From: an uncultured Alphaproteobacteria bacterium
GTDB lineage: Bacteria > Pseudomonadota > Alphaproteobacteria > Rs-D84
NCBI GenBank assembly: GCA_963931495.1
Contig: OZ007020.1
Location: 360,001 to 392,000 of the forward strand
Direction: 5' to 3'
DNA length: 32,000 nt
A model generated the notes under the pieces. The model was not told where the DNA came from, did not search any database, and saw only the letters and a list, made by a program, of their open reading frames with translations. Of this stretch, positions 7,432 to 27,106 are shown in pieces (the first letter of the stretch is position 1; each line of letters starts with the position of its first letter). The position numbers and the translations under genes are program-made.

Positions 7432-8382
7432 TTATCGCTGTAAAACCTGGGGCGCGAATTGTTGAATAAATTTTTGTTCCGCGTTTTTGAATTCACGCGA
7501 TATATTGGTGACTGATTTTTTGAATATGTCTTGTTCTGGGGCGATTCCAGTCTTTTGTATCATGCGAACGCGTGCAGACACCAGTTCTTCGTATAATATA
7601 TCGGCAAAACGTTCAAATCGCATATGTGGGGTCGTGTCCCATGTGGCAATGGCGTTGCATATGCCCCGCCGGCGTGACAGTAATGACTGGGCCCCCATAT
7701 AATTTGACAGTGGGTCATTGTCGTATATCGGAATGTCGTGACCGATTTTGATGTCGTTTGCGTCGCGACCATAGAAAAACGCACGGTGCATATAATAATG
7801 AAAATGGCGCATGTTGGCATGATTACGATGGGCAATGCCGTTGACCATGTGTTCTGCGCGTGCCAATTCATCACGCAATGATATGCGGGCGTATTGGTAT
7901 GTTTGGTTGTATATATCACCGAATGTCGCGTTCGGCATCATAAAATATGTCTGGGTGAATATCTGGCGTGGCCATTGACGCATTATTGACCAGCATGCAT
8001 ATCGGGTTAATTTGGCGTCTGGGGCGTTTGTTTTGTTTATTGTCTGGTTGCCGTCATTGATTTGATAGTTGTTATGTATCGTCGCAATGTGACCAGTATA
8101 GAAATTATAAAAGTTTTGCGGAATACGTTCGTTATCTGAATTATGTCGGCGGATTTTTTCAAATGTTTTGCGATTAATTGCGTCGCGACCAATTGTGTCA
8201 ATGTCGTCGTGGTGACCCATGTATAATGGACCAAATAAATTATATAAATCAGAAAATAACCAATATTCGCATTCGGATGTTATGGCGGCGCCAGAAAACA
8301 GGGTGGGGGGATTATCGTCATATGTGCTGTGGGTGCAACGATTCAATTGATTGTAAATATTTTCAGATTTTTCGTGTGCCAT
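7432..8382 (-). CDS. DinD-like (DNA-damage-inducible protein D family) protein, divergent
   Basis: TFEKIRRHNSDNE, KLTRYACWSIMRQ and TQTYFMM line up with the recalled DinD core FENI+R..E.G, L[ST]RYACYLIAQNGDP and AQTYFAxQTR. The N-terminus is extended and the rest is diverged. Confidence 0.45.
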   Translation of the reverse strand: MAHEKSENIYNQLNRCTHSTYDDNPPTLFSGAAITSECEYWLFSDLYNLFGPLYMGHHDDIDTIGRDAINRKTFEKIRRHNSDNERIPQNFYNFYTGHIATIHNNYQINDGNQTINKTNAPDAKLTRYACWSIMRQWPRQIFTQTYFMMPNATFGDIYNQTYQYARISLRDELARAEHMVNGIAHRNHANMRHFHYYMHRAFFYGRDANDIKIGHDIPIYDNDPLSNYMGAQSLLSRRRGICNAIATWDTTPHMRFERFADILYEELVSARVRMIQKTGIAPEQDIFKKSVTNISREFKNAEQKFIQQFAPQVLQR

Positions 8383-13717: not shown

Positions 13718-13746
13718 TTGGAATGAATGCTTATTTGTGATATAGT
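13718..13746 (+). promoter_or_regulatory. Putative promoter (TTGGAA-17 nt-TGaTATAGT extended -10) for the barrel gene
   Basis: TTGGAA at 13718-13723, TG at 13738-13739 and TATAGT at 13741-13746. Contains the 11-mer atttgtgatat also found upstream of fibre gene 1. Confidence 0.45.
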
Positions 13747-13775: not shown

Positions 13776-14519
13776 ATGAAAAAAATAATTTCTTTTGCTG
13801 TGTTGGCTGGTTTGTCTGTGTCTGCGTATGCGGCACCGATGTATCCAACGTATGTATCCAGTAATTCGTATGTTGATGCGAATTACAGCGGTGACAGTCT
13901 GTACAGATATGCCGACCGTGAAAAAACAAATTGGTATGCCACAATTCGTGCCGAATTGGCTTTGTTGAATTGGACGAATACGTATTCAATGCAAGAAACT
14001 GCACCAACAGATGCGGGATTTGGCGGGGATAAATATTCACTGGAACCGGTGTTTGGTGGCAACTTGGCGGTTGGTCATAAGTTTACAGATGCATGGCGTG
14101 CGGAACTGGAAGCCGGCTATATCGGATATTTTTCTGATACTGATCCGATTTCACACTTTACAATGCAGATTCCGTATTTAATGGTGAATGGATTTTATGA
14201 TTTTCAAAATGGATTTTATCTGGGGGCGGGCGTTGGTGTGTCGCTGGTTATAACAGAAATTGATACGTTGATGTCTACGCCGGAAAATCGCTATAACACC
14301 GGGGCATCGCCAATGGGGGCGGTTATGTTGGGTTATGCGCTGGAACTGGGTAATGATTTTGTTCTGGATGTGCGGTACAGATTGTCTGGGATGATGGGGG
14401 ACCAGCATCGTTTCTATCCGACAGAACTGTTTGATGGCAGTGCAACGTTCTGGGTGCAAAATGAAATTGGATTCATACTGGATAATTCACTGTCGGTCGG
14501 GTTGCGATATGAATTTTAG
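13776..14519 (+). CDS. Outer-membrane beta-barrel protein, Omp25/Omp31 (OMP_b-brl) type
   Basis: Signal peptide MKKIISFAVLAGLSVSAYA. Alternating amphipathic strands rich in G/Y. Terminal SLSVGLRYEF with C-terminal Phe, typical of OMP insertion signals. Confidence 0.8.
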   Translation: MKKIISFAVLAGLSVSAYAAPMYPTYVSSNSYVDANYSGDSLYRYADREKTNWYATIRAELALLNWTNTYSMQETAPTDAGFGGDKYSLEPVFGGNLAVGHKFTDAWRAELEAGYIGYFSDTDPISHFTMQIPYLMVNGFYDFQNGFYLGAGVGVSLVITEIDTLMSTPENRYNTGASPMGAVMLGYALELGNDFVLDVRYRLSGMMGDQHRFYPTELFDGSATFWVQNEIGFILDNSLSVGLRYEF

Positions 14520-14531
14520 TATAAAATGCTG

Positions 14532-14561
14532 TTGACCCGATTCGGACATTTGTGATATCAT
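14532..14561 (+). promoter_or_regulatory. Putative promoter (TTGACC-18 nt-TATCAT with TG extension) for the fibre array
   Basis: TTGACC at 14532-14537, TG at 14553-14554 and TATCAT at 14556-14561, 20 nt before the ATG at 14582. Confidence 0.5.
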
Positions 14562-14581
14562 TAAACAGGTAGAGAGAATTT

Positions 14582-16399
14582 ATGAAAAACACGTTTGGCA
14601 TTTCAACATTAGCAATCACATTGGCCATAGGGGCATTTGTGTGTGACGCAAATGCGGCGGCAACTGTTCGGGCATTGGGGGGCAGTGGAACGTATTCCAG
14701 TGCATCCAGTGCATCGTCTGGTTCGTCGGCCACAACACGGGGCAGTTCGGTCAGTGTTGCACCGGTGGCCAGTTCTGGGTCGTCGGGCGTCGCGGCAACC
14801 GGTGGTGGAACAACCACGGGGCGGGTTTCAACAATGCCACGTCTGTCGTTGGGCAGTTATTTGACCGGTGCAATTAATTCCAGTGGCGGAATGCTGCGGC
14901 CGGTGGTGTCGGGTGATGATTCTTCGTCGTCTGGTTCGGGGTCTGGGTCAACAGGTGGTAATATGACCCCCGGGGCATCCGCGGAAATTATCAAGGAAAT
15001 TGACCGGTTGCATTCAGATGTGGAAAGTTTGCGCGCATCAGATGAAAGTCTGTTGGAAAGCATGGATGCCAAGCAGGATGTTTTGGTTCCGACCGAAGAT
15101 GGGTATGTTGTTATTGACAATAATGAAATCTTTTTGGACGTTGAAAATTTAAGTAATGCATTAGAAGAACTGGTTGATGATGGTCGTGAAGTAGAAATTG
15201 ATTATGATGGCGAATATGTTGTTTGGCGTTATGTCGGTGATGCAGTGTGGAATAATTTGATATCCAAGGAAGATATTACCGGACCCCAAGGACCCGAAGG
15301 ACCCCAAGGTCCCCAGGGCGAGGCCGCCAATCTGGACGCATATTCAACAACAGAACAGATGAATTTTGCAATTGCAAATGCAATTGGTGCGCTGGCTGAA
15401 ATATACGCAACGAAAACAGAATTAACAAAGTATCCGACGTCTGATACTGTGGCGGCAACATACGCGACCAAGGCGGAATTGGCGAAATATCCAACCGCGG
15501 ATACGGTTGTTGCAACCTATGCAACCAAGGAAGAGTTAAAGAACTATCCCACGTCTGAAACAGTATCGGCAACATATGCAACAAAAACAGAGTTGGCGAC
15601 CAAGGCAACGACCGAGGCACTGGAACGTGGATTGGCGGCCAAGGCAGATGCCGCGGCATTGGATAACTATGTTAAAACAGGAACACTGACCCAGTATTAT
15701 TATGACAAGGCCGGGGTTGATAATCGTATATCTGAAATTGTGTCGGGGGATTTAAGTACTGCGTTGACACAATATGTTAAAACAGAAGATATGAATACGG
15801 CATTGGCGGGCAAGGTTGATAACGAAGATATGGTCAACTATGCAACGGTTGCAACGGTTGATACCAAGGCGGATAAAACAGCGGTGGAATCGTTGGCACT
15901 GACGGTTGCAGATGTTGATACAGTCGCAACATCGGCGGCCCAGGGTGTTGATACGGTGTCTGATTTGGTGGATGAGGTTATTGGGCATGTAAAACAGAAT
16001 AAAACGGCAATTGGAAATATGCAGACTGTCGTAGGGGCGGGGGAATTGTCAACCGAAGCGCGAACAATCGTGGGGGCCATCAATGAAATAACAGGTCGGG
16101 TGGACGATTTACCAACACAGAGCAATTTCCAAGAAGTTAATCAAGCTATCACCAGCATAGAAAATGCATTGGAAACCAAGGTTGAAACGACCGAATTAAA
16201 TGAAATCGCCTTTACCGGCCAGATTACAAATGAAAATGTGGCGGAAAATGCGGGGATTTCACGTATTAAATTATCATCGGATGTTCAAGATTCTTTGGAT
16301 CGTGCCGATGAAGCGGTGGTTGTTGATGGTATCGGTTCAAATCGTATCTTGGGAACAGACGACGCCGGTCAAGAAACGTGGTACGAAATTGTTATGTAA
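14582..16399 (+). CDS. Secreted tail-fibre-like / collagen-like repeat protein (fibre array gene 1)
   Basis: Signal peptide ..AFVCDANA-AA, then a Ser/Gly-rich linker. WRYVGDAVWNNL is followed by GPQGPEGPQGPQGEA. Three YPTxDTVxATYATKxEL repeats, heptad-like A/T/K/D-rich stalk, IVGAINEI box, C-terminal GTDDAGQETWYEIVM. Confidence 0.8.
   Translation: MKNTFGISTLAITLAIGAFVCDANAAATVRALGGSGTYSSASSASSGSSATTRGSSVSVAPVASSGSSGVAATGGGTTTGRVSTMPRLSLGSYLTGAINSSGGMLRPVVSGDDSSSSGSGSGSTGGNMTPGASAEIIKEIDRLHSDVESLRASDESLLESMDAKQDVLVPTEDGYVVIDNNEIFLDVENLSNALEELVDDGREVEIDYDGEYVVWRYVGDAVWNNLISKEDITGPQGPEGPQGPQGEAANLDAYSTTEQMNFAIANAIGALAEIYATKTELTKYPTSDTVAATYATKAELAKYPTADTVVATYATKEELKNYPTSETVSATYATKTELATKATTEALERGLAAKADAAALDNYVKTGTLTQYYYDKAGVDNRISEIVSGDLSTALTQYVKTEDMNTALAGKVDNEDMVNYATVATVDTKADKTAVESLALTVADVDTVATSAAQGVDTVSDLVDEVIGHVKQNKTAIGNMQTVVGAGELSTEARTIVGAINEITGRVDDLPTQSNFQEVNQAITSIENALETKVETTELNEIAFTGQITNENVAENAGISRIKLSSDVQDSLDRADEAVVVDGIGSNRILGTDDAGQETWYEIVM
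15281..15325 (+). repeat. Collagen-like run, five G-X-Y triplets
   Basis: gga ccc caa gga ccc gaa gga ccc caa ggt ccc cag ggc gag gcc translates to GPQ GPE GPQ GPQ GEA. Confidence 0.9.
15428..15598 (+). repeat. Three tandem 57-nt (19-aa) coding repeats
   Basis: KYPTSDTVAATYATKAELA / KYPTADTVVATYATKEELK / NYPTSETVSATYATKTELA. The units are diverged at synonymous sites. Confidence 0.9.
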
Positions 16400-16420
16400 C
16401 AGAGCAGAATGGGAACGTAA

Positions 16421-17584
16421 ATGAAAAATAAAAAAATTGTTTTTTGTGGATTTGCGGCGACATTACTGATGGCGGGTACCGCGAATGCGGCGGTGAAAAT
16501 TGCCAGCCAAGAATACGTTGATCGTGTTGATAATGTTATCGCGGAAAGCGTTGATTCTGTTCAGACCCAGGTTACAGAATTGGATACCGTTGTTAATGAC
16601 CCGGATACAGGGCTGGTTAGTGGGGTTGCGGATTTACAATCCCAGATTTCGGGCAAGCAAGATGTTGCGAATTTAACCCAGACCATAAATGATGAATCCC
16701 AGGAAACACAATATCCATCGGCGGCGGCGGTTAATACGGCAATCAAAGATGCAACAACAGGACTGGTTGGCAGCGAAGATTTAGAAGATTTGGCCGGTGA
16801 TGTAAATGCGCTGAACACAAATGTTATCCAGTTGCAATTTGATGTAAAGTCAAAACAGGATTCTTTGAATGATAATCAAATGAATGCGGTGAATTCTGGG
16901 ATTACTGCGGACAAGGTTACACAGTATGATGAATATGCAACCCAGATTGCGGCCAAGCCAGACGCAGCATCGTTGGCAACAGTGGCAACAACAGGATCAT
17001 ATAATGATTTGAAAGATGCGCCGGCACCGATTGTCGTTGATGCGACGTTAAGTGCAGAAAGTACAAATCCGGTTCAAAATAAAGTTATTAATGCCGCATT
17101 GGCAACCAAGGCCAGTACCCAGGATGTTTCTGATATCGCCGAAGATGTGACGATATTGGAATATCTGGTTAATAACGAAGATACAGGCTTGTCGGCCCAG
17201 GTTGCAGATATTGCTACCGCGGTTGAAACAGCGCAATCGGGTGTTGATTCGTTGACACAAACAGTCGGTAATGCCGAAGGTGGACTGGTCAAAGATGTTA
17301 CAGATTTGCAAGGCGATATGTCTGGCAAGCAAGATGTGGCAAGTCGTGAAAATACAATCACTGATGATGATACAAAATATCCATCATCTGGGGCGGTGTA
17401 CGATGCGTTGGCAACCAAGGCTGATGTTGATGCAACGTATACCAAAGAAGAAACAGACAACCAAATCACTACATTGGCAATACCACGGCCAAGTGATGAA
17501 TGTATGGCATCGTCAGGGGTGTGTGTGTTGTCGGTAACCAGTTCTGGTGACTTTGCATGGGTTAATGTGGCGTATCCAGATTAA
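16421..17584 (+). CDS. Secreted tail-fibre-like protein (fibre array gene 2)
   Basis: Signal peptide ..MAGTANA-AVKIASQEYVDRVDNV. Two YPSxxAV boxes (TQYPSAAAVNTAI, TKYPSSGAVYDALATKAD). VATTGSYNDLKDAP. C-terminal PRPSDECMASSGVCVLSVTSSGDFAWVNV. Confidence 0.8.
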   Translation: MKNKKIVFCGFAATLLMAGTANAAVKIASQEYVDRVDNVIAESVDSVQTQVTELDTVVNDPDTGLVSGVADLQSQISGKQDVANLTQTINDESQETQYPSAAAVNTAIKDATTGLVGSEDLEDLAGDVNALNTNVIQLQFDVKSKQDSLNDNQMNAVNSGITADKVTQYDEYATQIAAKPDAASLATVATTGSYNDLKDAPAPIVVDATLSAESTNPVQNKVINAALATKASTQDVSDIAEDVTILEYLVNNEDTGLSAQVADIATAVETAQSGVDSLTQTVGNAEGGLVKDVTDLQGDMSGKQDVASRENTITDDDTKYPSSGAVYDALATKADVDATYTKEETDNQITTLAIPRPSDECMASSGVCVLSVTSSGDFAWVNVAYPD

Positions 17585-17642
17585 TTTGGCTGGGGCAAAA
17601 CAAAGAGATATAAAGAGAAAAAAATAAAACAGGAGAAAACAA

Positions 17643-18917
17643 ATGAAAAAATTAACCGCAGGTATATTTGCAACCTTATTAGCTGTTGTGTCGGTTGGTG
17701 CCGCACGCGCTGATATCGCGTCCAGCCAATATGTTGATGACAAGGTTGATACCGTTGAAACATCTGTAACAACATTGTCTGGACGGGTTGATACCGCCGA
17801 AGAGGGAATTGAAACATTGGGAACAAAATTGGATGCCAAGTTGGATTCTGCAACAGCGGCCAGCACGTATGCAACCCAATCAGCATTAACAAGTGGTTTG
17901 GCGAACAAGCAAGATAAAGCACTGATTACATCAGCAGAATATGCGGAACATATATCCAGTGAAACAGGTTATCCATCTGTGGCGGCAGTAGAAGCGGCAA
18001 TTGATGCGGCAACCGATGGGGTGGTTACCGATGTGTCGGACAAGGTTGATATTGCCCAGGGCGCTGGTGCCGCGAACAAGGCTGTTATTACTGGGGCGGA
18101 TGGTAATATTACAACTGGTGAAGTTACCAGCGGCATGATTGCAGATGGTACAATCGTTAATGCAGATATTTCCGCATCGGCGGCCATTGAGGCATCAAAA
18201 ATTACAGGTCTGGGTGGTTTGGCCAGTCAAGATACTGTTGGTGCCGGTGATATTGAAGCGGGCGCAATCGTTAATGCAGATATTTCCGCGTCGGCAGCCA
18301 TTGATCAATCAAAAATTAATGGATTAGAAGCATCGTTGGGTGCAAAAGAAAATGTTGCTAATCGTGTTACAACGACAACATGGAATGCAAACAAGAACAG
18401 TGATGAAATGTATCCGACAGCGGGTGCGGTCAATGCCGCAATTACAACCGCAACGTCTGGTATTACAACAGATATATCTGAATTGACGACCCAGGTTGAA
18501 GAAAATACCCAGGGTATCGCTGATAACGCAAGTGATATATCAACCAATACATCGGCGATTGGTACTTTGACCAGTTTGACAACCACAGAACAAGGAAACT
18601 TGGTTGGTGCGATTAATGAAGTGGCCGGTGAGGTTGCGGATGTTTCGGGTGATATTGCATTAAAACAGAATATCACAGATAACACATTCACAACAGCGGC
18701 GAAGACGGTACCGGGTGCTGTTAATGAATTGAAAACCGCGGTTGATGCGGCCGCAGATGCGGCAGAAGCAGCCCAGACGGCGGCCGATGCCAAGATCCCA
18801 ATGCCAAGTGGCGAATGCAGCAACCCAACAAACAAATGCGTATTAGTATCAAATGGTACAAGTTCGTTTGAATGGGAAGTTGTTGCCCGTGGTGTGTCAC
18901 CGGATGTTGGTGAATAA
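17643..18917 (+). CDS. Secreted tail-fibre-like protein (fibre array gene 3)
   Basis: SD aggag. Signal peptide ..VSVGAARA-DIASSQYVDDKVDTVETSV. YPSVAAVEAAI and YPTAGAVNAAI boxes. Duplicated IVNADISASAAIxxSKIxGL module. LVGAINEV. C-terminal PMPSGECSNPTNKCVLVSNGTSSFEWEVV. Confidence 0.8.
   Translation: MKKLTAGIFATLLAVVSVGAARADIASSQYVDDKVDTVETSVTTLSGRVDTAEEGIETLGTKLDAKLDSATAASTYATQSALTSGLANKQDKALITSAEYAEHISSETGYPSVAAVEAAIDAATDGVVTDVSDKVDIAQGAGAANKAVITGADGNITTGEVTSGMIADGTIVNADISASAAIEASKITGLGGLASQDTVGAGDIEAGAIVNADISASAAIDQSKINGLEASLGAKENVANRVTTTTWNANKNSDEMYPTAGAVNAAITTATSGITTDISELTTQVEENTQGIADNASDISTNTSAIGTLTSLTTTEQGNLVGAINEVAGEVADVSGDIALKQNITDNTFTTAAKTVPGAVNELKTAVDAAADAAEAAQTAADAKIPMPSGECSNPTNKCVLVSNGTSSFEWEVVARGVSPDVGE
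18135..18330 (+). repeat. Internal duplication with 114-nt (38-aa) period in fibre gene 3
   Basis: The copies starting at 18153 and 18267 share 36 of their first 38 nt (atcgttaatgcagatatttccgc[a/g]tcggc[g/a]gccattga). Confidence 0.85.
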
Positions 18918-18933
18918 TTTTACCGATAAGATT

Positions 18934-18964
18934 CTGTGTGTGATGCGTGGTGCGTCACACACAG
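18934..18964 (+). repeat. Strong hairpin built on (TG)n/(CA)n between fibre genes 3 and 4
   Basis: ctgtgtgtgatgc..gcgtcacacacag gives about 13 bp including G-U pairs, with a small loop. No U-tract follows. Confidence 0.6.
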
Positions 18965-19038
18965 AAGGATAAAAATGGGTATAAGTGGTGCGCAACGTAA
19001 CGGTAATGTGAACATTTAGTTTTGTTTATGTAAATGTG

Positions 19039-20073
19039 ATGCTGAAAGTTAAAAATATTTTTGCTGTTTCTGTTATCGCGATAATGACAGTTGGCGGGGC
19101 GTTGGCTGATATTGCATCTGTAACGTATGTTGATGATAAGTTCAGCACCGTTGAAACCGATGTTACGGGAAATGTCACAGGGGACGGGAATGTTGTAACC
19201 ACAATTTCAGCCAGTGGTAACACGGTTACCGCGACCAAGGGAATAACCGCCGAAGAAATTAAAAACAAGGTTGAAAGCATTCGTGATTCTGGGACGGCAA
19301 CAAACACGGCGTATCCATCAGAACGTGCGGTTGCAATTGCGTTGGCGGTCAAGGCAGATTCCAGCACTGTTTCCGCAATGCAAAGTGATATAGATGCCGC
19401 CGGTGCCGCCGCCGCCGAGGCCAAAGAAGCGGCCAGCAGTGCAGAAAGTGCAGCAACAGAGGCATCAGAAGCCGCCGCCGCCGCCACCGCAGCGGTCGCG
19501 AACAAGGTTACGGCGAATGCCGCAATCACGGGTGGCACAGCAACAAAAATTACATTTGATGCCAAAGGATTGGTTACGGGTGGGGCCAATTTGACCGCTG
19601 ATGATATTCCAACGGTTCCAAGTACAAAAGTTTCGGGGCTGTCAACAGTCGCAACGTCGGGGTCGTATGATGATTTGACGGACAAGCCGTCTATCCCAGC
19701 GGCATATACTTTGCCGGCGGCGACATCGGCGGCGTTGGGCGGTGTTAAATCGGGCGGTGATATTTCTGTTTCCGCAGATGGTATTGTGACAGTCAGCAAT
19801 GCTGCATCGGCGGACAAGGCGACAACGGCCACAACCGCAACGAATGCAACCAATGCAACAAATGCGACGAATGATGCCGGCGGTAATAATATTGCGAGTA
19901 CGTATGCAACCAAGTCGCAAATAACGGCATTGAACAGTTCATCCACAGGTACGGGTGCCGTTGTGACCGCTGTGTCACAATCAGGTGGCAAGGTTTCAGT
20001 GACCAAGGGCAATGTTCAAATTCCTGTGGGCAGTGCGACCGGAACATCGTATGCCACGATATGGGTTGAATAG
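19039..20073 (+). CDS. Secreted tail-fibre-like protein (fibre array gene 4)
   Basis: Signal peptide ..MTVGGALA-DIASVTYVDDKFSTVETDV. YPSERAVAIALAVKAD, an Ala/Glu-rich coiled segment, VATSGSYDDLTDKPSIP, LPAATSAALGGVKSGGDISVSADGIVTV, ATNATNATNATN, C-terminal GTSYATIWVE. Start is GTG 19036 or ATG 19039, and the SD is weak. Confidence 0.75.
   Translation: MLKVKNIFAVSVIAIMTVGGALADIASVTYVDDKFSTVETDVTGNVTGDGNVVTTISASGNTVTATKGITAEEIKNKVESIRDSGTATNTAYPSERAVAIALAVKADSSTVSAMQSDIDAAGAAAAEAKEAASSAESAATEASEAAAAATAAVANKVTANAAITGGTATKITFDAKGLVTGGANLTADDIPTVPSTKVSGLSTVATSGSYDDLTDKPSIPAAYTLPAATSAALGGVKSGGDISVSADGIVTVSNAASADKATTATTATNATNATNATNDAGGNNIASTYATKSQITALNSSSTGTGAVVTAVSQSGGKVSVTKGNVQIPVGSATGTSYATIWVE
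19820..19873 (+). repeat. Low-complexity 9-nt coding repeats (ATT ATT ATN ATN ATN ATN)
   Basis: gcgacaacg gccacaacc gcaacgaat gcaaccaat gcaacaaat gcgacgaat. Confidence 0.8.
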
Positions 20074-20110: not shown

Positions 20111-20138
20111 AAAAAGCGCCGTTTGGCGTTTTTTTTGT
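20111..20138 (+). terminator. Rho-independent terminator after the fibre array
   Basis: aaaaagcgcc-gttt-ggcgtttttttt, 38 nt after the stop at 20073. Confidence 0.8.
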
Positions 20139-20146
20139 TTCGGACT

Positions 20147-20169
20147 GGGTACCCCAGGTGGCAGGTCCG
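20147..20169 (+). repeat. Left copy of a roughly 21-nt direct repeat flanking the IS200 remnant
   Basis: gggtaccccaggtggcaggtccg here, compared with taccccaggtggcggggtccg at 20611-20631. Confidence 0.75.
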
Positions 20170-20581
20170 ATGAATGCGGATAATCCAAAATTTTTGTTCT
20201 GGGATATTGGTATGAATTTAATGTTGGGGTTGCATTATGTCTGTCACGGCCGGTATCATGTACGTTTAGCGGCCGCATGGCGTCGTAAAACATTCAACGA
20301 TGGCATGTTTAGTTTTTTCAAGAAGTGCGCAGAAATAATTTGTAAATGTTACCCACGGATAAAAGTATTAGAAATAAAACACAATAGAGATTATATATAT
20401 ATTTTGATATCGCCAGCGCCGTCATTGTCTGGGGGGGGTAACGCGATTAGCACGATAAAAACAAATACCAGCAGCCAGATGAACAATATATTTTAGGTAT
20501 GGACAGTAATTGGCCTGAGGAATGTTTTTTATCAATGGCATAGATGAAATGATGGTCAAAAAATACATTGAACAACAGTGA
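20170..20581 (+). pseudogene. IS200/IS605-family tnpA (Y1 HUH transposase) remnant
   Basis: YHVRLAAAWRRKTF..KVLEIKHNRDYIYILISPAPSLS..IKTNTSS parallels the recalled IS200 TnpA YHIVFAPKYRRQAF..RILEAECCADHIHMLLEIPPKMS..LKGKSS. The HUH motif reads YIY. The tail (..LA*GMFFINGIDEMMVKKYIEQQ) is only recovered in another frame through two stops. Confidence 0.7.
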
Positions 20582-20610
20582 TAAAAAGATTTGGGACGAC
20601 ATGTGGTCAA

Positions 20611-20631
20611 TACCCCAGGTGGCGGGGTCCG
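20611..20631 (+). repeat. Right copy of the direct repeat flanking the IS200 remnant (contains a small hairpin)
   Basis: taccccaggtggcggggtccg. acccc and ggggt can pair. Confidence 0.75.
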
Positions 20632-20759: not shown

Positions 20760-21635
20760 TCAACTGCCGGTGGTATCACTGCCGGTGAATTTATTTGGTA
20801 TAACATAGCATTCTGTTATAGAAACAGTGCCAGGGGTTGCAGAACCGCCAACACCGATAGAGCCGTCGTTTATTTCGCCCGGGCCGGCGGTCGTTTGGGT
20901 ACCAGATGAATGCGATGGGCATGGGGTGCAATATGATACTATGCTGCCGGCGAAATTTGCATTAGGTACCCCGTAAAATCCCTTGGGGCATCGCGTTTGT
21001 TTATTCATGTACGTCATGCATCTGTTGCCACTGCATGCTTTCTTTGTGCGGACCTGGACCGCGTTTGAACCACTGTATGCCATTTCCCATGCTGTTGGAA
21101 CGCATGTTGATTCATCGCATGTGCCACCAGTGGTGCCACCACCACCAGTATTGCTGGCCAAAGAATCACTCATACATTTATAATAGGTTACATTACTGCA
21201 TCCCAAAATAGTGTGTTTTACGCGTGTGTATCCAGATTTACATCCGCTGGCGGATTTAATATAGTATTGAATACCATCTGCATCAAAACATATGTTTGTG
21301 GTACCTGTGGCCCCAGGATCGCCCATCACAGATGCCGTTGAACCAAAGTCTATGAATTCCGTGCGTTCATATATATTGGTGCATCCCGCAGACAGGCATT
21401 GAGCATATCCACCGCCGCCGCCACCACCACCACCGGAATCGCCACAGCGACGACAACATGCGGTGTTTACAATGTCAAGGCATGTCATGCATCCACTGAT
21501 GCATTCGGATACGTTATCCCAATCTAAGTATGATTCAGGAATGTTGGCACTGAATGCAGGCGTATTGAAACACAGGCAACATAACACAGAAAACACCCCG
21601 CCATGCCAAATGGCGGCATTTGATTTTATATACAT
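20760..21635 (-). CDS. Secreted cysteine-rich repeat protein, family member 2 (with Gly9 tract)
   Basis: ATG at 21635 follows gggaga. MYIKSNAAIWHGGVFSVLCCLCFNTPAFSA is signal-like. Cys-rich motifs include CISGCMTCLD, CCRRCGDSGGGGGGGGGYAQC and RCPKGFYG. The C-terminal module is CTPCPSHSSGT...SITECYVIPNKFTGSDTTGS. Confidence 0.75.
   Translation of the reverse strand: MYIKSNAAIWHGGVFSVLCCLCFNTPAFSANIPESYLDWDNVSECISGCMTCLDIVNTACCRRCGDSGGGGGGGGGYAQCLSAGCTNIYERTEFIDFGSTASVMGDPGATGTTNICFDADGIQYYIKSASGCKSGYTRVKHTILGCSNVTYYKCMSDSLASNTGGGGTTGGTCDESTCVPTAWEMAYSGSNAVQVRTKKACSGNRCMTYMNKQTRCPKGFYGVPNANFAGSIVSYCTPCPSHSSGTQTTAGPGEINDGSIGVGGSATPGTVSITECYVIPNKFTGSDTTGS
21408..21434 (-). repeat. (GGN)9 trinucleotide tract encoding Gly9
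   Basis: The plus strand reads tcc acc gcc gcc gcc acc acc acc acc. Confidence 0.9.
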
Positions 21636-21657
21636 ATTTTTGTCTCCCACTTTTGTT

Positions 21658-21687
21658 GTTGTGAATGCCGAATTTGTCATTCACAAC
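21658..21687 (-). promoter_or_regulatory. Perfect 10-bp palindrome at the transcript start of the Cys-rich gene (operator or 5' hairpin)
   Basis: gttgtgaatg (21658-21667) and cattcacaac (21678-21687) with a 10-nt spacer. It lies between the predicted -10 and the SD. Confidence 0.55.
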
Positions 21688-24644: not shown

Positions 24645-25061
24645 ATGTCTGTGTGGACGTATATACTTAAAACACCAATAAAAGTAATTCGGGCGGATTT
24701 CGCAGAATATAGAAAACTGAATCAAGACATTGCGCGTGTGGGACGTAATATGCAGAATGCACGTGTTAATATGATTGTGCGTATGGGGAAAAAATGGTGC
24801 GTGGTTCCATCGGCACGTGCGTATGCGGGCTGTGTGCAAAAATCTTGGACCCCAGAGTTAGATATTCAAATGGGAATTAATGTATTGCGTGAATATGAAT
24901 GTGAATGTCCGTTGTTCGTTCCAAACTGGTGGCCGTGTAATCAAGTAAACTGTCTGTATCACCAGTTTAACAACAAGTATTTTGAAAATAAAAATATTTA
25001 TGAAGTTCTGAAACGTAATAAGTCTGGGTTTTGGAAAGAAAAGTTTAACAAGGTACGATAA
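24645..25061 (+). CDS. Small Cys-box protein, paralogue 1 of 3 (unknown family)
   Basis: SD aagga sits 17 nt after the lepA stop. N-terminal WTYILKTPIKVIRADFAEYRKL. C-terminal PCNQVNCLYHQFNNKYF...FWKEKFNKVR. Confidence 0.6.
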   Translation: MSVWTYILKTPIKVIRADFAEYRKLNQDIARVGRNMQNARVNMIVRMGKKWCVVPSARAYAGCVQKSWTPELDIQMGINVLREYECECPLFVPNWWPCNQVNCLYHQFNNKYFENKNIYEVLKRNKSGFWKEKFNKVR

Positions 25062-25078
25062 ATGGTGGGGTTGTTGTT

Positions 25079-25360
25079 ATGTCTGGGTGGAAATATTTAA
25101 TTAAAACTTCGCGGAAAACGTTAAAATCAGATATCACAGAATATAAAAAACTGTGTGAACGTCTTGTGGATGCCAGGCGACAATATAATTTATCACGTGC
25201 ATCCTTTACAGATGTTGGATGTACGCGTTATCCATGCAAAGACATATATTGCAAATATTATGAAGTTAACCGAAATTATGGCGAAACGTTGCATATGATG
25301 CATATGTTGGAAAAACAGCGCAAGATTTACTGGGTGCAAAAGTTTGCAAACTGTCGGTAA
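25079..25360 (+). CDS. Small Cys-box protein, paralogue 2 of 3 (unknown family)
   Basis: WKYLIKTSRKTLKSDITEYKKL, PCKDIYCKYYEVNRNYG and YWVQKFANCR follow the same layout as the 24645 and 25695 genes. Confidence 0.55.
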   Translation: MSGWKYLIKTSRKTLKSDITEYKKLCERLVDARRQYNLSRASFTDVGCTRYPCKDIYCKYYEVNRNYGETLHMMHMLEKQRKIYWVQKFANCR

Positions 25361-25380
25361 AAAAAAACAAGGTGAATGTT

Positions 25381-25677
25381 ATGAATAAATTTAACGTTGT
25401 AAAAAAAACTGTTTCTGATTGTTTTAATATACGGCCGGGTGTAATCAATAAAACAACTCATCTGGAAAATGATTTAGAATTGGACAGTCTGGACAGAATT
25501 ATATTACAGGCGAAAATAGAATCAAAATGTAAAAATTTTTATCCAAATGTTAAAAACTGGGTGGAAAATGTTCAAACGGTCGGTGATATCGCAGATTATG
25601 TTGATATGTGCAATCATGTGAATTGTAAAAAATTCGGACTTATTGGGCTTATCGGCCGTTTCGGAAAATCAATGTAA
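25381..25677 (+). CDS. Divergent acyl-carrier-protein-like protein (second ACP)
   Basis: SD aaggtg lies 7 nt before the ATG at 25381. VKKTVSDCFNI..INKTTHLENDLELDSLDRIILQAKIE aligns with the ACP helix I-II region, including the DSL phosphopantetheine site. There is an extra Cys-containing C-terminal tail. Confidence 0.6.
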   Translation: MNKFNVVKKTVSDCFNIRPGVINKTTHLENDLELDSLDRIILQAKIESKCKNFYPNVKNWVENVQTVGDIADYVDMCNHVNCKKFGLIGLIGRFGKSM

Positions 25678-25694
25678 ACAAGGGAAATAAAAAT

Positions 25695-26084
25695 ATGAAA
25701 ATAATTCAATATATGTTAACAACACCAATAAAACAACAACGTGCGGACCTTGCGGAATGGCGTATATTACAATACAAATGCGCGTCACTGCATTTGGATA
25801 AATTTTGCGCATATGATTCGCTGATTCGGTTTGTTAACGAAAATCAAAATCCGCATGATATACGGGCGTGTGTAAAGCGGCCTGAAAATTGGCAACAGTT
25901 CATGTCCGTCCCAGACGATTCGTTTTGTAAAAAATTTAATCCAAATAATATGATGGGGGCGTGCGATGAACAAAATTGTCCTTTCTATCAGCGCAATAAT
26001 GCATTCTTTAATATTTTGAAACGGTATGAAAGCGCGATTACAGCACGGCGTGATTTTTGGGATAATAAAATGAATCAGCGTTAG
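25695..26084 (+). CDS. Small Cys-box protein, paralogue 3 of 3 (unknown family)
   Basis: IQYMLTTPIKQQRADLAEWRIL, ACDEQNCPFYQRNNAFF and FWDNKMNQR. SD aaggga. Confidence 0.6.
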   Translation: MKIIQYMLTTPIKQQRADLAEWRILQYKCASLHLDKFCAYDSLIRFVNENQNPHDIRACVKRPENWQQFMSVPDDSFCKKFNPNNMMGACDEQNCPFYQRNNAFFNILKRYESAITARRDFWDNKMNQR

Positions 26085-26107
26085 TCTTTCTGGACGGGGG
26101 GAATATC

Positions 26108-27106
26108 ATGGCACATCAATTCTTTTTTAATCCGTTTATATTGGATAACTTGCCGACACCAAGTGCGGGATTTGATGTGGTCCAGGATATATCTGAACCG
26201 CGTCTGCGTATGTATATCACCAGTCGCGGGATAAAAACATTCTTTGTGCGTAAACGTGTACATGGGCGGGACAAGCGTATAATAATTGGAAATTATCCGG
26301 ATATTGATGTTGAAACAGCACGTGGAATGGTGCCATCTGTGTTGGCGCGCGCAATGGAAAAACCACGCCGTCGCAATAAAAAAATTACAATGCGCAAATT
26401 TCTGGATATATATTTGACGAACCGAATTCGCAGAAACAGTTATTCGCGCGAAAAATTGGAACGCGCAATAAGACGGCATCTGTCACCACTGTTTGATATG
26501 CCATTGAATGAAATTTCAGATGCTGATATTGCCAATGTTATCATATGTATCCATGGCCCGGCCATCGCAGCCCGTATGCAGGATTTGTTACAAAGTGTTT
26601 ACAAGTATGCAATTGATAATGGGTATGCCAATGAAAATCCAGTTGCGAAATTACAGAAAATAAAGCCTGTGCGTCGTGTGCGGCCGTTGAATATGGCGGG
26701 GTTCCATCGGCTGGTGGGGGCAATAAAACGCGAACCTGTCCAGAATTTGCGCGCGGCGTTTTTAATGCTGGTGTACGGTTTCGCACCGAAATCACGTGTC
26801 TTTGCAATGCAATGGCGTGACCTGGATTTTAACCTTTATATGTGGAATGATTGGCCACTGTCTGATGCCGCGGTTGTTTTGTTACAGGATTTGCCGCAAA
26901 ATGGCCGTTGGGTATTTCCTGGACGGGGACGGGGGCATTTGACAGATCCGCGTGTCGCATGGCAGCGGATTGTGACCAAGGCCGGTATCCCAAATGTGAC
27001 AATGGACGATGTGCATAAATTCTTGATGCGACAATTGGTCTGGGCCCCAGACAAGGAAGATATTCGTGCAAATATGAATGATGTTTTGGTAAATGCGCTT
27101 GGTTGA
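26108..27106 (+). CDS. P4-type tyrosine-recombinase homologue, catalytically degenerate and C-terminally truncated
   Basis: N-terminal arm-binding (DUF4102-like) pattern ..RLRMYITSRGIKTFFVRKRVHGRDKRIIIGNYPDIDVETAR, then WRDLDF and VFPG. The HxLRRT box reads TMDDVHKF. The ORF stops at ..NALG, where LGH precedes the catalytic Tyr in intact enzymes. Confidence 0.65.
   Translation: MAHQFFFNPFILDNLPTPSAGFDVVQDISEPRLRMYITSRGIKTFFVRKRVHGRDKRIIIGNYPDIDVETARGMVPSVLARAMEKPRRRNKKITMRKFLDIYLTNRIRRNSYSREKLERAIRRHLSPLFDMPLNEISDADIANVIICIHGPAIAARMQDLLQSVYKYAIDNGYANENPVAKLQKIKPVRRVRPLNMAGFHRLVGAIKREPVQNLRAAFLMLVYGFAPKSRVFAMQWRDLDFNLYMWNDWPLSDAAVVLLQDLPQNGRWVFPGRGRGHLTDPRVAWQRIVTKAGIPNVTMDDVHKFLMRQLVWAPDKEDIRANMNDVLVNALG

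Follow-up and report, generated by a model that had tools for sequence, protein, structure and literature searches.

A lineage-wide gene cluster of the alphaproteobacterial order Rs-D84 encoding a predicted outer-membrane barrel and four putative secreted fibre proteins

The barrel and fibre genes and their predicted products

The subject of this analysis is a cluster of five genes in the genome of an uncultured alphaproteobacterium of the lineage Rs-D84 (NCBI GenBank assembly GCA_963931495.1, contig OZ007020.1). The window, that is, the whole stretch of DNA analysed, covers 32,000 nucleotides (nt; positions 360,001 to 392,000 of the contig, forward strand), and all coordinates given below refer to it. 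The cluster lies on the plus strand at 13776-20073. It begins with a gene for a β-barrel protein (13776-14519, 247 amino acids, aa), which is followed on the same strand by four open reading frames (ORFs) for fibre-like proteins: gene 1 (14582-16399, 605 aa), gene 2 (16421-17584, 387 aa), gene 3 (17643-18917, 424 aa), and gene 4, which ends at 20073 and starts either with GTG at 19036 (345 aa) or with ATG at 19039 (344 aa). The gaps between the consecutive genes are 62, 21, 58, and 118 or 121 nt, respectively. Independent gene calls on identical public contigs give a length of 344 aa for gene 4, and the same array of 605, 387, 424, and 344 aa is present on a contig of 958,617 bp that carries an identical gene 1 protein and is probably circular, to judge by its name. 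An earlier note on this DNA, made from the sequence alone, had described four tail-fibre-like mosaic proteins with signal peptides behind an Omp25/31-type barrel. The ORFs, their spacing, and the AxA-type cleavage sites were all borne out, and every sequence motif listed there was located at its exact position.

The signal peptides were assessed by a heuristic that considers the n-region, the Kyte–Doolittle hydropathy of a 12-residue segment, and an AxA-type site. All five proteins display an n-region with lysine or arginine, a hydrophobic 12-mer (Kyte–Doolittle values of 2.4-2.7), and an AxA-type site, in this order. The predicted cleavage sites from the barrel to gene 4 are AYA/AP, ANA/AA, ANA/AV, ARA/DI, and ALA/DI (the slash marks the site), and the predicted signal-peptide stretches of genes 1 to 4 correspond to 14582-14656, 16421-16489, 17643-17711, and 19039-19107 of the plus strand. 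Every group of orthologues retains Sec-type signal peptides. At the amino acid level, they are far more conserved within each paralogue group than the mature proteins; that of gene 3 shares 71% identity across 31 species, compared to approximately 30-45% for the whole protein. The identity at four-fold degenerate sites is 0.44-0.48 in the signal-peptide regions versus 0.37-0.39 in the controls, FtsE and the barrel gene. A function of these regions as DNA-level recombination handles was rejected, because the synonymous identity is only slightly above that of the controls. As it is only marginally raised, the constraint appears to act mainly on the amino acid sequence, which suggests that the signal peptides might have a sequence-specific role beyond generic Sec targeting.

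The gene 1 product comprises the signal peptide (aa 1-25), a Gly/Ser/Thr-rich N-terminal region (aa 26 to approximately 145), a predicted coiled-coil shaft, and a C-terminal hairpin (LGTDxxGxxxWYEI). The Gly/Ser-rich region is unique to gene 1 among the paralogues and includes the invariant motifs VRxLGGxGTY and RLSxGxYLxG. The consensus of the gene 1 group reads MKxxLKISxLAIVCVLC...A/SSVRSLGGSGTY ... RLSIGxYL ... VLGTDxxGxPVWYEI. Further downstream, the segment WRYVGDAVWNNL at aa 215 is followed by GPQGPEGPQGPQGEA at aa 234, which consists of five collagen GXY triplets (15224-15325, plus strand, repeat family D17). Three tandem 57-nt (19-aa) repeats with YATKxEL motifs of the β-layer type are located at 15390-15599 (plus strand, repeat family D1), and the motif occurs four times in the protein (aa 275, 294, 313, and 332). 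The motif [IL]VGAINE[IV] is found at aa 496 of gene 1 and at aa 320 of gene 3.

The products of genes 2 to 4 share another layout. Each has a signal peptide of 23 aa, and the mature part opens with a variant of the motif IASxxYVD, namely IASQEYVD in gene 2, IASSQYVD in gene 3, and IASVTYVD in gene 4. Gene 2 contains an internal duplication (D11, D12) and ends in the C-terminal module IPRPSDEC...CVLSV...FAWVNV (group consensus MKKxNIxFSGFMAAIL...ANA/ATQIASKQYVD ... PQPxxxCxAESGLCVLSV...AWVNV). In gene 3, the signal peptide MKKLTAGIFATLLAVVSVGAARA and the cap motif are followed by a helix-rich shaft, in which IVNADISASAAIxxSKI appears twice (aa 171 and 209), and by the C-terminal module IPMPSGECSNPTNKCVLVSNGTSSFEWEVV (group consensus MKKLTAGIFATLL...A/xIASxxYVD ... 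IPxPxGECxxPxNKCVLxxN...WEVI). Gene 4 has an Ala-rich shaft with GSYDDLTDKP and LPAATSAALGGVKSGG modules, LPAATSAALGGVKSGGDISVSADGIVTV at aa 225, and the conserved C-terminus VTKGNVQIPVGSATGTSYATIWVE (group consensus ...IFAVSFIAMM...A/xIASQGYVD ... VTKGNVxIPVGxxxATxYATIWVE). The motif [ST]GSY[ND]DLxDxP is common to gene 2 (aa 191) and gene 4 (aa 207), and five YP[ST]xxAVxxA[IL] boxes are distributed over genes 2, 3, and 4 (two, two, and one, respectively). The four genes are paralogous, with E-values of 1e-24 for genes 2 and 3, 5e-21 for genes 3 and 4, and approximately 1e-9 for gene 1 with genes 2 and 3.

A tryptophan is located at most about 15 residues from the C-terminus in most of the 238 family ORFs, in which tryptophan accounts for only 0.38% of all residues. 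Cysteines outside the termini are similarly rare (0.03 per family protein). A C-x(3-9)-C pair was detected in the C-terminal module of 40 out of 49 gene-2-type and 49 out of 73 gene-3-type proteins, which fits a disulfide formed after export and thus an oxidising location outside the cytoplasm. Together with the signal peptides of all orthologue groups, the restriction of the cysteine pair to the C-terminal module is in line with the Sec export postulated earlier. No significant match to a curated family (Pfam or NCBIfam) was obtained for the fibre proteins of the window, and the only name found for any relative was "hypothetical protein."

The barrel protein carries a signal peptide (aa 1-19), a Tyr-rich and poorly modelled N-terminal extension (approximately aa 20-52), and a C-terminus (GLRYEF) with the aromatic residue of a β-signal. 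Its AlphaFold2 model, based on an alignment with 42 homologues, reached a predicted local distance difference test (pLDDT) score of 85 and a predicted template modelling (pTM) score of 0.79 and shows eight long antiparallel strands; matches to OmpA, OprG, NspA, Ail, OmpW, and OmpX were retrieved with Foldseek. The protein is thus modelled as a small eight-stranded outer-membrane barrel similar to OmpA and OmpW. The designation as an Omp25/31-type barrel would be approximately right according to this model, although the score against PF13505 is just below the threshold (24.3 bits, cut-off 28.7); most of the homologues have a precomputed PF13505 match. With eight strands, the barrel is conceivable as an anchor, an adhesin scaffold, or a partner of the fibres, but not as a pore for passenger proteins. 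None of 94 homologues of the barrel and 386 of gene 1 was a fusion of a barrel with a fibre protein (Rosetta stone).

Conservation in Rs-D84 and replacement of the shafts

When one genome of each prokaryotic species was scanned, 78 loci were obtained, essentially all of them in metagenome-assembled genomes from the gut of humans, chickens, and ruminants. These genomes are labelled as uncultured Alphaproteobacteria, Candidatus Enterousia, or "uncultured Rickettsiales." At NCBI, Candidatus Enterousia has the status of an alphaproteobacterial genus incertae sedis, and in GTDB it belongs to the order Rs-D84; the alphaproteobacterial host presumed from the sequence is thus supported. The genomes of Rs-D84 are mostly smaller than 1 Mb. 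Respiration, standard transporters, and many biosynthetic pathways are missing, and an obligate symbiotic or parasitic life on metabolites taken from other cells has been predicted (PMC12306168).

The five proteins of the window were compared with all ORFs of 81 fetched loci. In 64 of the 77 species-level loci, the barrel gene is present and opens the cluster. A gene of the fibre family follows 3' of the barrel with a median gap of 63 nt (150 nt or less in 58 of 63 loci), and in 57 of 63 loci this adjoining gene is the orthologue of gene 1. The strict order of barrel and genes 1, 2, 3, and 4 is kept in 31 loci. FtsE is encoded nearby in 61 of the 63 loci, FtsX in 59, and LepA in 41; the recurrence of these neighbours places the cluster at a single chromosomal position across the order. 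Genes for phage structural proteins (tail, baseplate, or capsid) were absent within approximately 13 kb on either side of the cluster and within approximately 10 kb in 78 other loci. The cluster is a lineage-wide feature and neither a prophage remnant nor an oddity of one genome. The earlier statement that no phage surrounds the genes stands, and the array is a hallmark of the whole order.

Relatives of the fibre proteins are numerous. For gene 3, at least 962 were counted at 90% clustering, and of 2,179 representatives at 50% clustering, 522 had E-values of 1e-10 or lower. The lengths of the orthologues vary widely: 420-1064 aa for gene 1 (1468 aa in locus L028), 267-750 aa for gene 2, 271-595 aa for gene 3, and 148-992 aa for gene 4. 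As judged from the sequences, each paralogue has a signal peptide, an N-terminal motif, and a C-terminal Trp hairpin of its own that are retained among the orthologues, and the middle part differs in length several-fold.

The exchange of this middle part could be followed between closely related genomes. On the upstream side of the replaced segment, the window and the conspecific locus L001 share 99.4% identity over 10.2 kb, and on the downstream side 98.3%. Only the middle of gene 3 has been replaced; here, the sequences are divergent or not homologous at all, and the identity drops to 7-64% in bins of 150 nt. According to the identity profile and the breakpoints, the replaceable cassette extends approximately from 17819 to 18790 (plus strand), so that both breakpoints are inside gene 3 and the signal peptide, the cap motif, and the C-terminal module remain intact. 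At least three classes of gene 3 alleles (424, 392, and 369 aa) exist besides indel variants of 381-401 aa, and all share N-termini with at least 90% and C-terminal modules with at least 80% identity. Exchange also appears to reach beyond the species. Between the window (17415-18895) and L004 (9767-11241), a locus of another species, the nucleotide sequences of gene 3 share 87.5% identity, compared to 74-81% for the housekeeping flanks and 64-66% for genes 1 and 4. That gene 3 is closer than both the flanks and these paralogues indicates a recent sharing of this allele between the two species.

Fibre architecture and relation to known surface proteins

Several lines of evidence argue for trimeric fibres. 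The YATKxE motifs of gene 1 (four observed versus 0.03 expected in shuffled sequences) agree with the β-layer consensus [aliphatic]-A-T-K-[polar]-[D/E], for which structures have been solved in trimeric coiled coils (PMC4786415). The profile of the gene 1 orthologues matches the stalk of NadA, a trimeric autotransporter (4cjd, E = 2.3e-5), as well as GCN4-fused constructs with an ADVYTKxxxYTK repeat (4e-5). The latter matches are read as segments of the β-layer type, because the repeat resembles the β-layers tabulated in the same study (PMC4786415). A weak match (0.014) connects aa 277-340 of gene 3 with the N@d coiled coil of SadA (2wpr). Collagen (Pfam) was found in 6 out of 32 gene 1 orthologues (best E-value 4e-18) and YadA_head in only 2 out of 46 orthologues (up to 3e-10). 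The IASxxYVD motif occurs in 41 of 49 gene-2-type, 67 of 73 gene-3-type, and 30 of 41 gene-4-type proteins and in none of 59 gene-1-type proteins. It closely resembles AATKAYVDKAI of a prophage tail-fibre hyaluronidase, which forms a transition from β-structure to coiled coil (PMC4786415), and may represent an N-terminal trimer cap, as far as can be concluded from a motif. In the AlphaFold2 monomer model of gene 3 (pLDDT 54), long helices make up approximately 60%, and a C-terminal β-hairpin is predicted at aa 398-415 (pLDDT approximately 80). A search of the PDB with the gene 3 family profile gave nothing meaningful. The collagen triplets, the β-layer motifs, and the similarity to the NadA and SadA stalks make a trimeric α/β coiled-coil fibre likely, in agreement with the earlier proposal.

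The assembly from phage-fibre parts could be upheld only in part. The sole significant PHROG match of the window proteins was obtained for aa 192-250 of gene 1 (phrog_19976, "tail assembly protein," 4e-10). The segment of gene 3 with the IVNADISASAAI repeats and LVGAINEV (aa 143-335) is similar (2e-11) to P0468, a fibre protein in a phage context; this protein of 1,836 aa has no signal peptide, is encoded beside a SegE-type homing endonuclease, and combines LVGAINEV with IxxADIxxxAI repeats. P0486, a fibre of 1,434 aa ending in a Peptidase_S74 chaperone, shares the GSYNDLxDKP motif with genes 2 and 4. The strong matches to tail-fibre families are those of the orthologues (phrog_5073, 3.5e-38; phrog_892, 2e-34, 14 members; phrog_366, 6e-32). 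These also match phrog_28766, fibritin, and head-fibre families, and collagen repeats may inflate some of the PHROG scores. Parts of trimeric autotransporters, YadA heads, and collagen are mixed in. In whole-protein tblastn searches against 50,697 phage genomes, genes 1 to 4 gave either no hit or hits of 33-60 aa at E-values of approximately 1e-2, to which the low-complexity filter may contribute. The family-specific termini had no relatives in the 2.9 million viral contigs of IMG/VR. This result and the synteny near ftsEX in 61 of 63 loci are in accordance with the view that the fibres are cell-encoded. The proteins thus seem to combine constant, cell-specific ends with a shaft drawn from a pool of modules that is shared with phage fibres and trimeric autotransporter adhesins.

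A gene-3-type terminus was observed on one phage contig (L085; ENA ERZ16268164 scaffold_3603), which also encodes an endolysin and a giant RNA-polymerase-like protein. The protein P0386 (3,352 aa) contains a C39-like peptidase and CHAP domains, and its last approximately 290 aa correspond to a gene-3-type half including the IPAP...C...CVL...W module. At the DNA level, the final 850 nt (L085:16935-17785) are pieced together from several Enterousia gene 3 alleles, and the identity to the locus L019 reaches 98%. The two parts of the protein meet at a TTIEGN motif that they have in common, and 5 nt remain between the end of the gene and that of the contig. Either a phage has captured half of a host fibre or the contig is an assembly chimera.

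Four kinds of known surface proteins are comparable to the fibres. Trimeric autotransporter adhesins (TAAs, type Vc secretion; NadA, SadA, YadA) likewise possess a Sec signal peptide and a modular fibre that varies in length and modules, and their coiled-coil stalk with β-layer and N@d-type motifs may have a counterpart in the cluster; YadA_head is found in some of the orthologues as well. In contrast, the four-strand YadA-type anchor (PF03895), which forms a 12-stranded barrel in TAAs, was not detected in the window proteins and the 78 orthologues scanned. The cluster fibres end in a Trp hairpin module of 30-40 aa instead, and a separate gene for an eight-stranded barrel (64 of 77 loci) is combined with an array of four conserved paralogues. 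Scl of streptococci and BclA of the Bacillus exosporium nap are secreted trimeric filaments that combine collagen GXY repeats with other domains, are polymorphic in length, and carry constant terminal elements for attachment and trimer nucleation. Collagen-bearing filaments, which in the cluster are presumably trimeric, length variation among strains, and constant ends are common to both groups. However, Scl and BclA are proteins of Gram-positive bacteria with LPXTG or basal-layer anchoring and large globular ends, whereas the cluster belongs to a diderm envelope and its collagen is minor and optional (five triplets in gene 1 of the window). Phage tail fibres and fibritin whiskers share modules, the presumed logic of trimeric α/β coiled coils, and a short C-terminal hairpin with a key tryptophan with the cluster proteins, in which this hairpin calls to mind a registration domain. 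The latter differ by Sec signal peptides that are predicted to be cleaved, a syntenic chromosomal locus with no virion genes nearby, termini that do not occur on viral contigs, and no detectable homology to the T4 foldon.

The mosaic adhesive trimer (MAT) fibres of Bdellovibrio bacteriovorus are cell-encoded mosaic trimers with signal peptides and parts shared with phage tail fibres (PMC10769870), as is proposed for the cluster proteins. In both systems, several paralogues are present per genome. Bdellovibrio lives off other cells, and the same is predicted for Rs-D84. MAT fibres have a conserved β-rich domain of approximately 130 aa directly after the signal peptide, and a conserved retention end is combined with a diversified C-terminal tip (an S74 chaperone or other adhesive folds; PMC10769870). 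Genes 2 to 4 proceed from IASxxYVD to a predicted helix and gene 1 starts with low complexity, which sets them apart from this description (PMC10769870). Moreover, the C-termini in the cluster are conserved and the shaft is variable, both ends being constant; Peptidase_S74 was not found in the window proteins or the scanned orthologues; and the genes form a fixed operon-like array behind a barrel. The Bdellovibrio fibres had been named as the only comparable concept, but TAAs are at least as close. On the sequence evidence, the cluster is akin to TAAs and MAT fibres in its presumed way of working and a member of neither family.

We regard it as the probable explanation, at a fair level of confidence, that the cluster encodes secreted trimeric surface fibres, probably adhesins, as part of a lineage-wide envelope module. 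The first gene would yield the small eight-stranded outer-membrane barrel, and the four paralogous fibre products would be exported via the Sec system and cleaved at the AxA sites by signal peptidase. The mature chains would fold as parallel homotrimeric α/β coiled-coil fibres, opened by a β-layer-type cap in genes 2 to 4. The conserved Trp β-hairpin at the end of all four, stapled by cysteines in genes 2 and 3, would most likely set the trimer register. The mosaic shaft would be swapped by recombination through the constant ends, both within and between species, and its variation may be driven by phages, immunity, or the diversity of partners. The fibres would project from the outer membrane and attach to partner or host cells, on which the bacteria are predicted to depend metabolically. 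The most likely cell-proximal anchoring elements would be the barrel and the Gly/Ser-rich N-terminal region of gene 1, which is a candidate because gene 1 is the constant neighbour of the barrel and the only paralogue with a non-fibre region.

Several results weigh against this explanation. A YadA anchor, a lipobox, or a barrel fusion, any of which could indicate a translocator or anchor in the outer membrane, was not found among hundreds of homologues, and an eight-stranded barrel, which provides no pore, does not account for the crossing of the outer membrane. The barrel could also be the major outer-membrane protein of the lineage and a mere syntenic neighbour of the fibre genes. The monomer model of gene 3 is of low confidence, as an obligate oligomer would lead one to expect. 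At the level of whole proteins, direct homology of the window proteins to phages appears weak, and the matches to phage proteins and TAAs are short or weak. Homology of the C-terminal module to the T4 foldon had to be rejected: with a profile of 30 modules, no foldon chain of the PDB was retrieved at E-values up to 10, and hhalign gave a probability of 0.5%, which leaves a likeness of pattern (IPxP, hairpin, W). The display via the adjacent barrel suggested in the earlier note is in accordance with the strongly conserved adjacency, but with eight strands the barrel may act as an anchor or partner and not as a translocation pore. A more specific version is tentative and seems rather unlikely. 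Here, a dedicated barrel would help to export and anchor four trimeric fibres that have no translocator of their own, with the N-terminal region of gene 1 and possibly the Trp hairpins of the others as tethers, and the whole would be an attachment organelle of the genome-reduced Rs-D84 bacteria on their partner cells. If so, the conservation of the signal peptides would reflect a specific export or sorting step.

The hypervariable shafts, swapped within and between species, would also suit a protective or structural coat, such as a nap resembling an S-layer, a decoy for phages, or a layer for immune evasion, in which they would serve the escape from phages or host IgA and not partner recognition. 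A globular receptor-binding tip is not recognisable, variation is confined to the shaft between two conserved ends, and the modules common to phage fibres would permit mimicry or receptor competition. The combination of collagen and coiled coil in the fibres can be likened to the hair-like naps formed by BclA-type proteins. Nevertheless, we consider a coat in place of specific adhesins unlikely: four paralogues with conserved termini are retained in genomes of less than 1 Mb throughout the order, which suggests specific and non-redundant roles, YadA-head repeats, typical of adhesin heads, are present in some orthologues, and the predicted partner-dependent lifestyle calls for attachment devices. 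The TAA-like stalks (NadA, SadA, and the YadA heads of orthologues), the nearly invariant adjacency of barrel and gene 1 at a median distance of 63 nt, and the conserved termini, as expected of docking surfaces, might point to a split, trans-acting relative of type V secretion. In this case, the barrel or a complex assisted by the β-barrel assembly machinery or the translocation and assembly module (BAM/TAM) would replace the TAA anchor, and the fibres would dock via their C-terminal hairpins or the N-terminal region of gene 1. The probability of this arrangement is low, since the barrel resembles OmpA, OmpW, and OmpX, which have no lumen that conducts passengers, PF03895 is missing from the family members scanned, and neither the barrel homologues nor those of gene 1 include a fusion.

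The combination of Sec signal peptides with no identifiable device for outer-membrane translocation could mean that the proteins stay within the envelope, as periplasmic or outer-membrane-tethering coiled coils that set the envelope spacing like Lpp or the OmpM stalk. A few orthologues match Alanine_zipper, the Lpp-type family, and tolB, a Pal-like gene, and ftsEX are in the neighbourhood. We judge this very improbable, as orthologue lengths of 420-1468 aa (gene 1) and 148-992 aa (gene 4) are incompatible with a periplasmic spacer of fixed width, cassette replacement and exchange between species are hallmarks of exposed molecules, and tail-fibre, collagen, and YadA-head modules are extracellular parts. 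There is only a very slight chance that the proteins are the fibres of a phage-derived particle encoded elsewhere, i.e., a prophage, a gene transfer agent (GTA), or a tailocin or contractile injection system. Such a particle would account for the modules in common with phage fibres and the gene-3-type half on the phage contig, and alphaproteobacterial GTAs are known to keep fibre genes apart from their main cluster. Yet conserved Sec signal peptides with predicted cleavage sites are unfit for an assembly on cytoplasmic particles, the constant partner is an outer-membrane barrel, tail, baseplate, or capsid genes are absent within approximately 13 kb on either side of the cluster here and approximately 10 kb in 78 other loci, the family termini are not found in IMG/VR, and the junction on the phage contig may itself be chimeric.

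If the genes encode secreted surface fibres as proposed, the cluster would be the best candidate for the means by which these uncultured bacteria, which are widespread in human, poultry, and ruminant guts and predicted to depend on other cells, attach to other cells. We found no prior description in the literature that links Rs-D84 or Enterousia to adhesins or fibres. The five genes take approximately 0.65% of a genome of less than 1 Mb. Possible uses comprise antibodies, pull-downs coupled to fluorescence in situ hybridisation, the identification of partners, and strain typing by gene 3 alleles. The fibres would extend the theme of bacteria that reuse phage-fibre and adhesin-stalk modules for their own surface fibres, as in TAAs and MATs; the constant ends with a swappable shaft and the operon organisation are distinctive here, and the route across the outer membrane could reveal a new biology of secretion or anchoring.

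Transcription signals and neighbouring genes

Two promoter-like sites were found on the plus strand, one upstream of the barrel gene (13718-13746, TTGGAA-17-TATAGT with TG) and one in the spacer between the barrel gene and gene 1 (14532-14561, TTGACC-18-TATCAT with TG, 10 of 12 positions). The latter had been proposed as the promoter of the fibre genes. The site does exist, but 17 such sites occur in the region compared to 15.4 expected from shuffled sequences, and because there is no excess, both are regarded as consensus matches only. The cluster is closed by an intrinsic terminator (AAAAAAGCGCC-GTTT-GGCGTTTTTTTT, 20111-20138) with a clean GC stem flanked by A and T runs, which is potentially bidirectional and folds as predicted, so that the strong terminator noted earlier was retained. 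A further stem-loop (CTGTGTGTGATGCGT...ACGCATCACACACAG-like) with a perfect 15-bp stem and no T-tract is located between genes 3 and 4, just past the stop codon of gene 3 (18934-18966, plus strand; folding z-score −6.6). The conspecific loci L001-L003 share its sequence at 98% identity, and no further copy was found among the other fetched loci. This element may be involved in RNA processing or stability or act as a partial attenuator.

The flanking genes are mainly housekeeping genes and include dnaN, a pyrophosphatase gene, the gene for EF-P, a class II aldolase gene, tolB, a Pal-like ORF, and ftsEX, as well as lepA, fabF, an acyl-CoA ligase gene, a tRNA-Pro gene, and yceG. Downstream of the terminator, a segment of approximately 441 bp (20150-20631) is missing from the otherwise 98-99% identical L001. 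It is bounded by direct repeats of 20-21 bp (TACCCCAGGTGGCAGGTCCG and TACCCCAGGTGGCGGGGTCCG), which are present as a single copy in L001, and nothing similar was found in the other fetched sequences. The difference results either from a small insertion or from a deletion between the direct repeats. Convergent with the cluster, a gene on the minus strand (20760-21680) encodes a Cys-rich protein of 306 aa with a Gly run and a hydrophobic N-terminal segment. Searches of Pfam, PHROG, and NCBIfam yielded nothing for this protein; versions of 291-302 aa are encoded at the same position on conspecific contigs, and it may be another envelope or secreted protein.

The stretch 24645-27106 holds four small ORFs without an assigned function (138, 93, 101, and 129 aa), followed by an integrase-like protein of 332 aa with Arm-DNA-binding, SAM-like, and central domains, for which no match to the catalytic domain was reported. 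A homologue is present in 38 of 63 related loci, which argues against a recent insertion of the integrase-like gene. One of the small ORFs (25372-25677) has a weak similarity to acyl carrier protein. On the other side of the cluster, a DinD-like protein of 316 aa is encoded on the minus strand at 7432-8382 (phrog_8036, 2.9e-12; NCBIfam DinD, 2e-6, below the cut-off). Its gene adjoins a gene of a CopG antitoxin family according to the gene calls on conspecific contigs. The pair, located between ORFs without an assigned function and tolB, looks like a small toxin–antitoxin or damage-inducible module.

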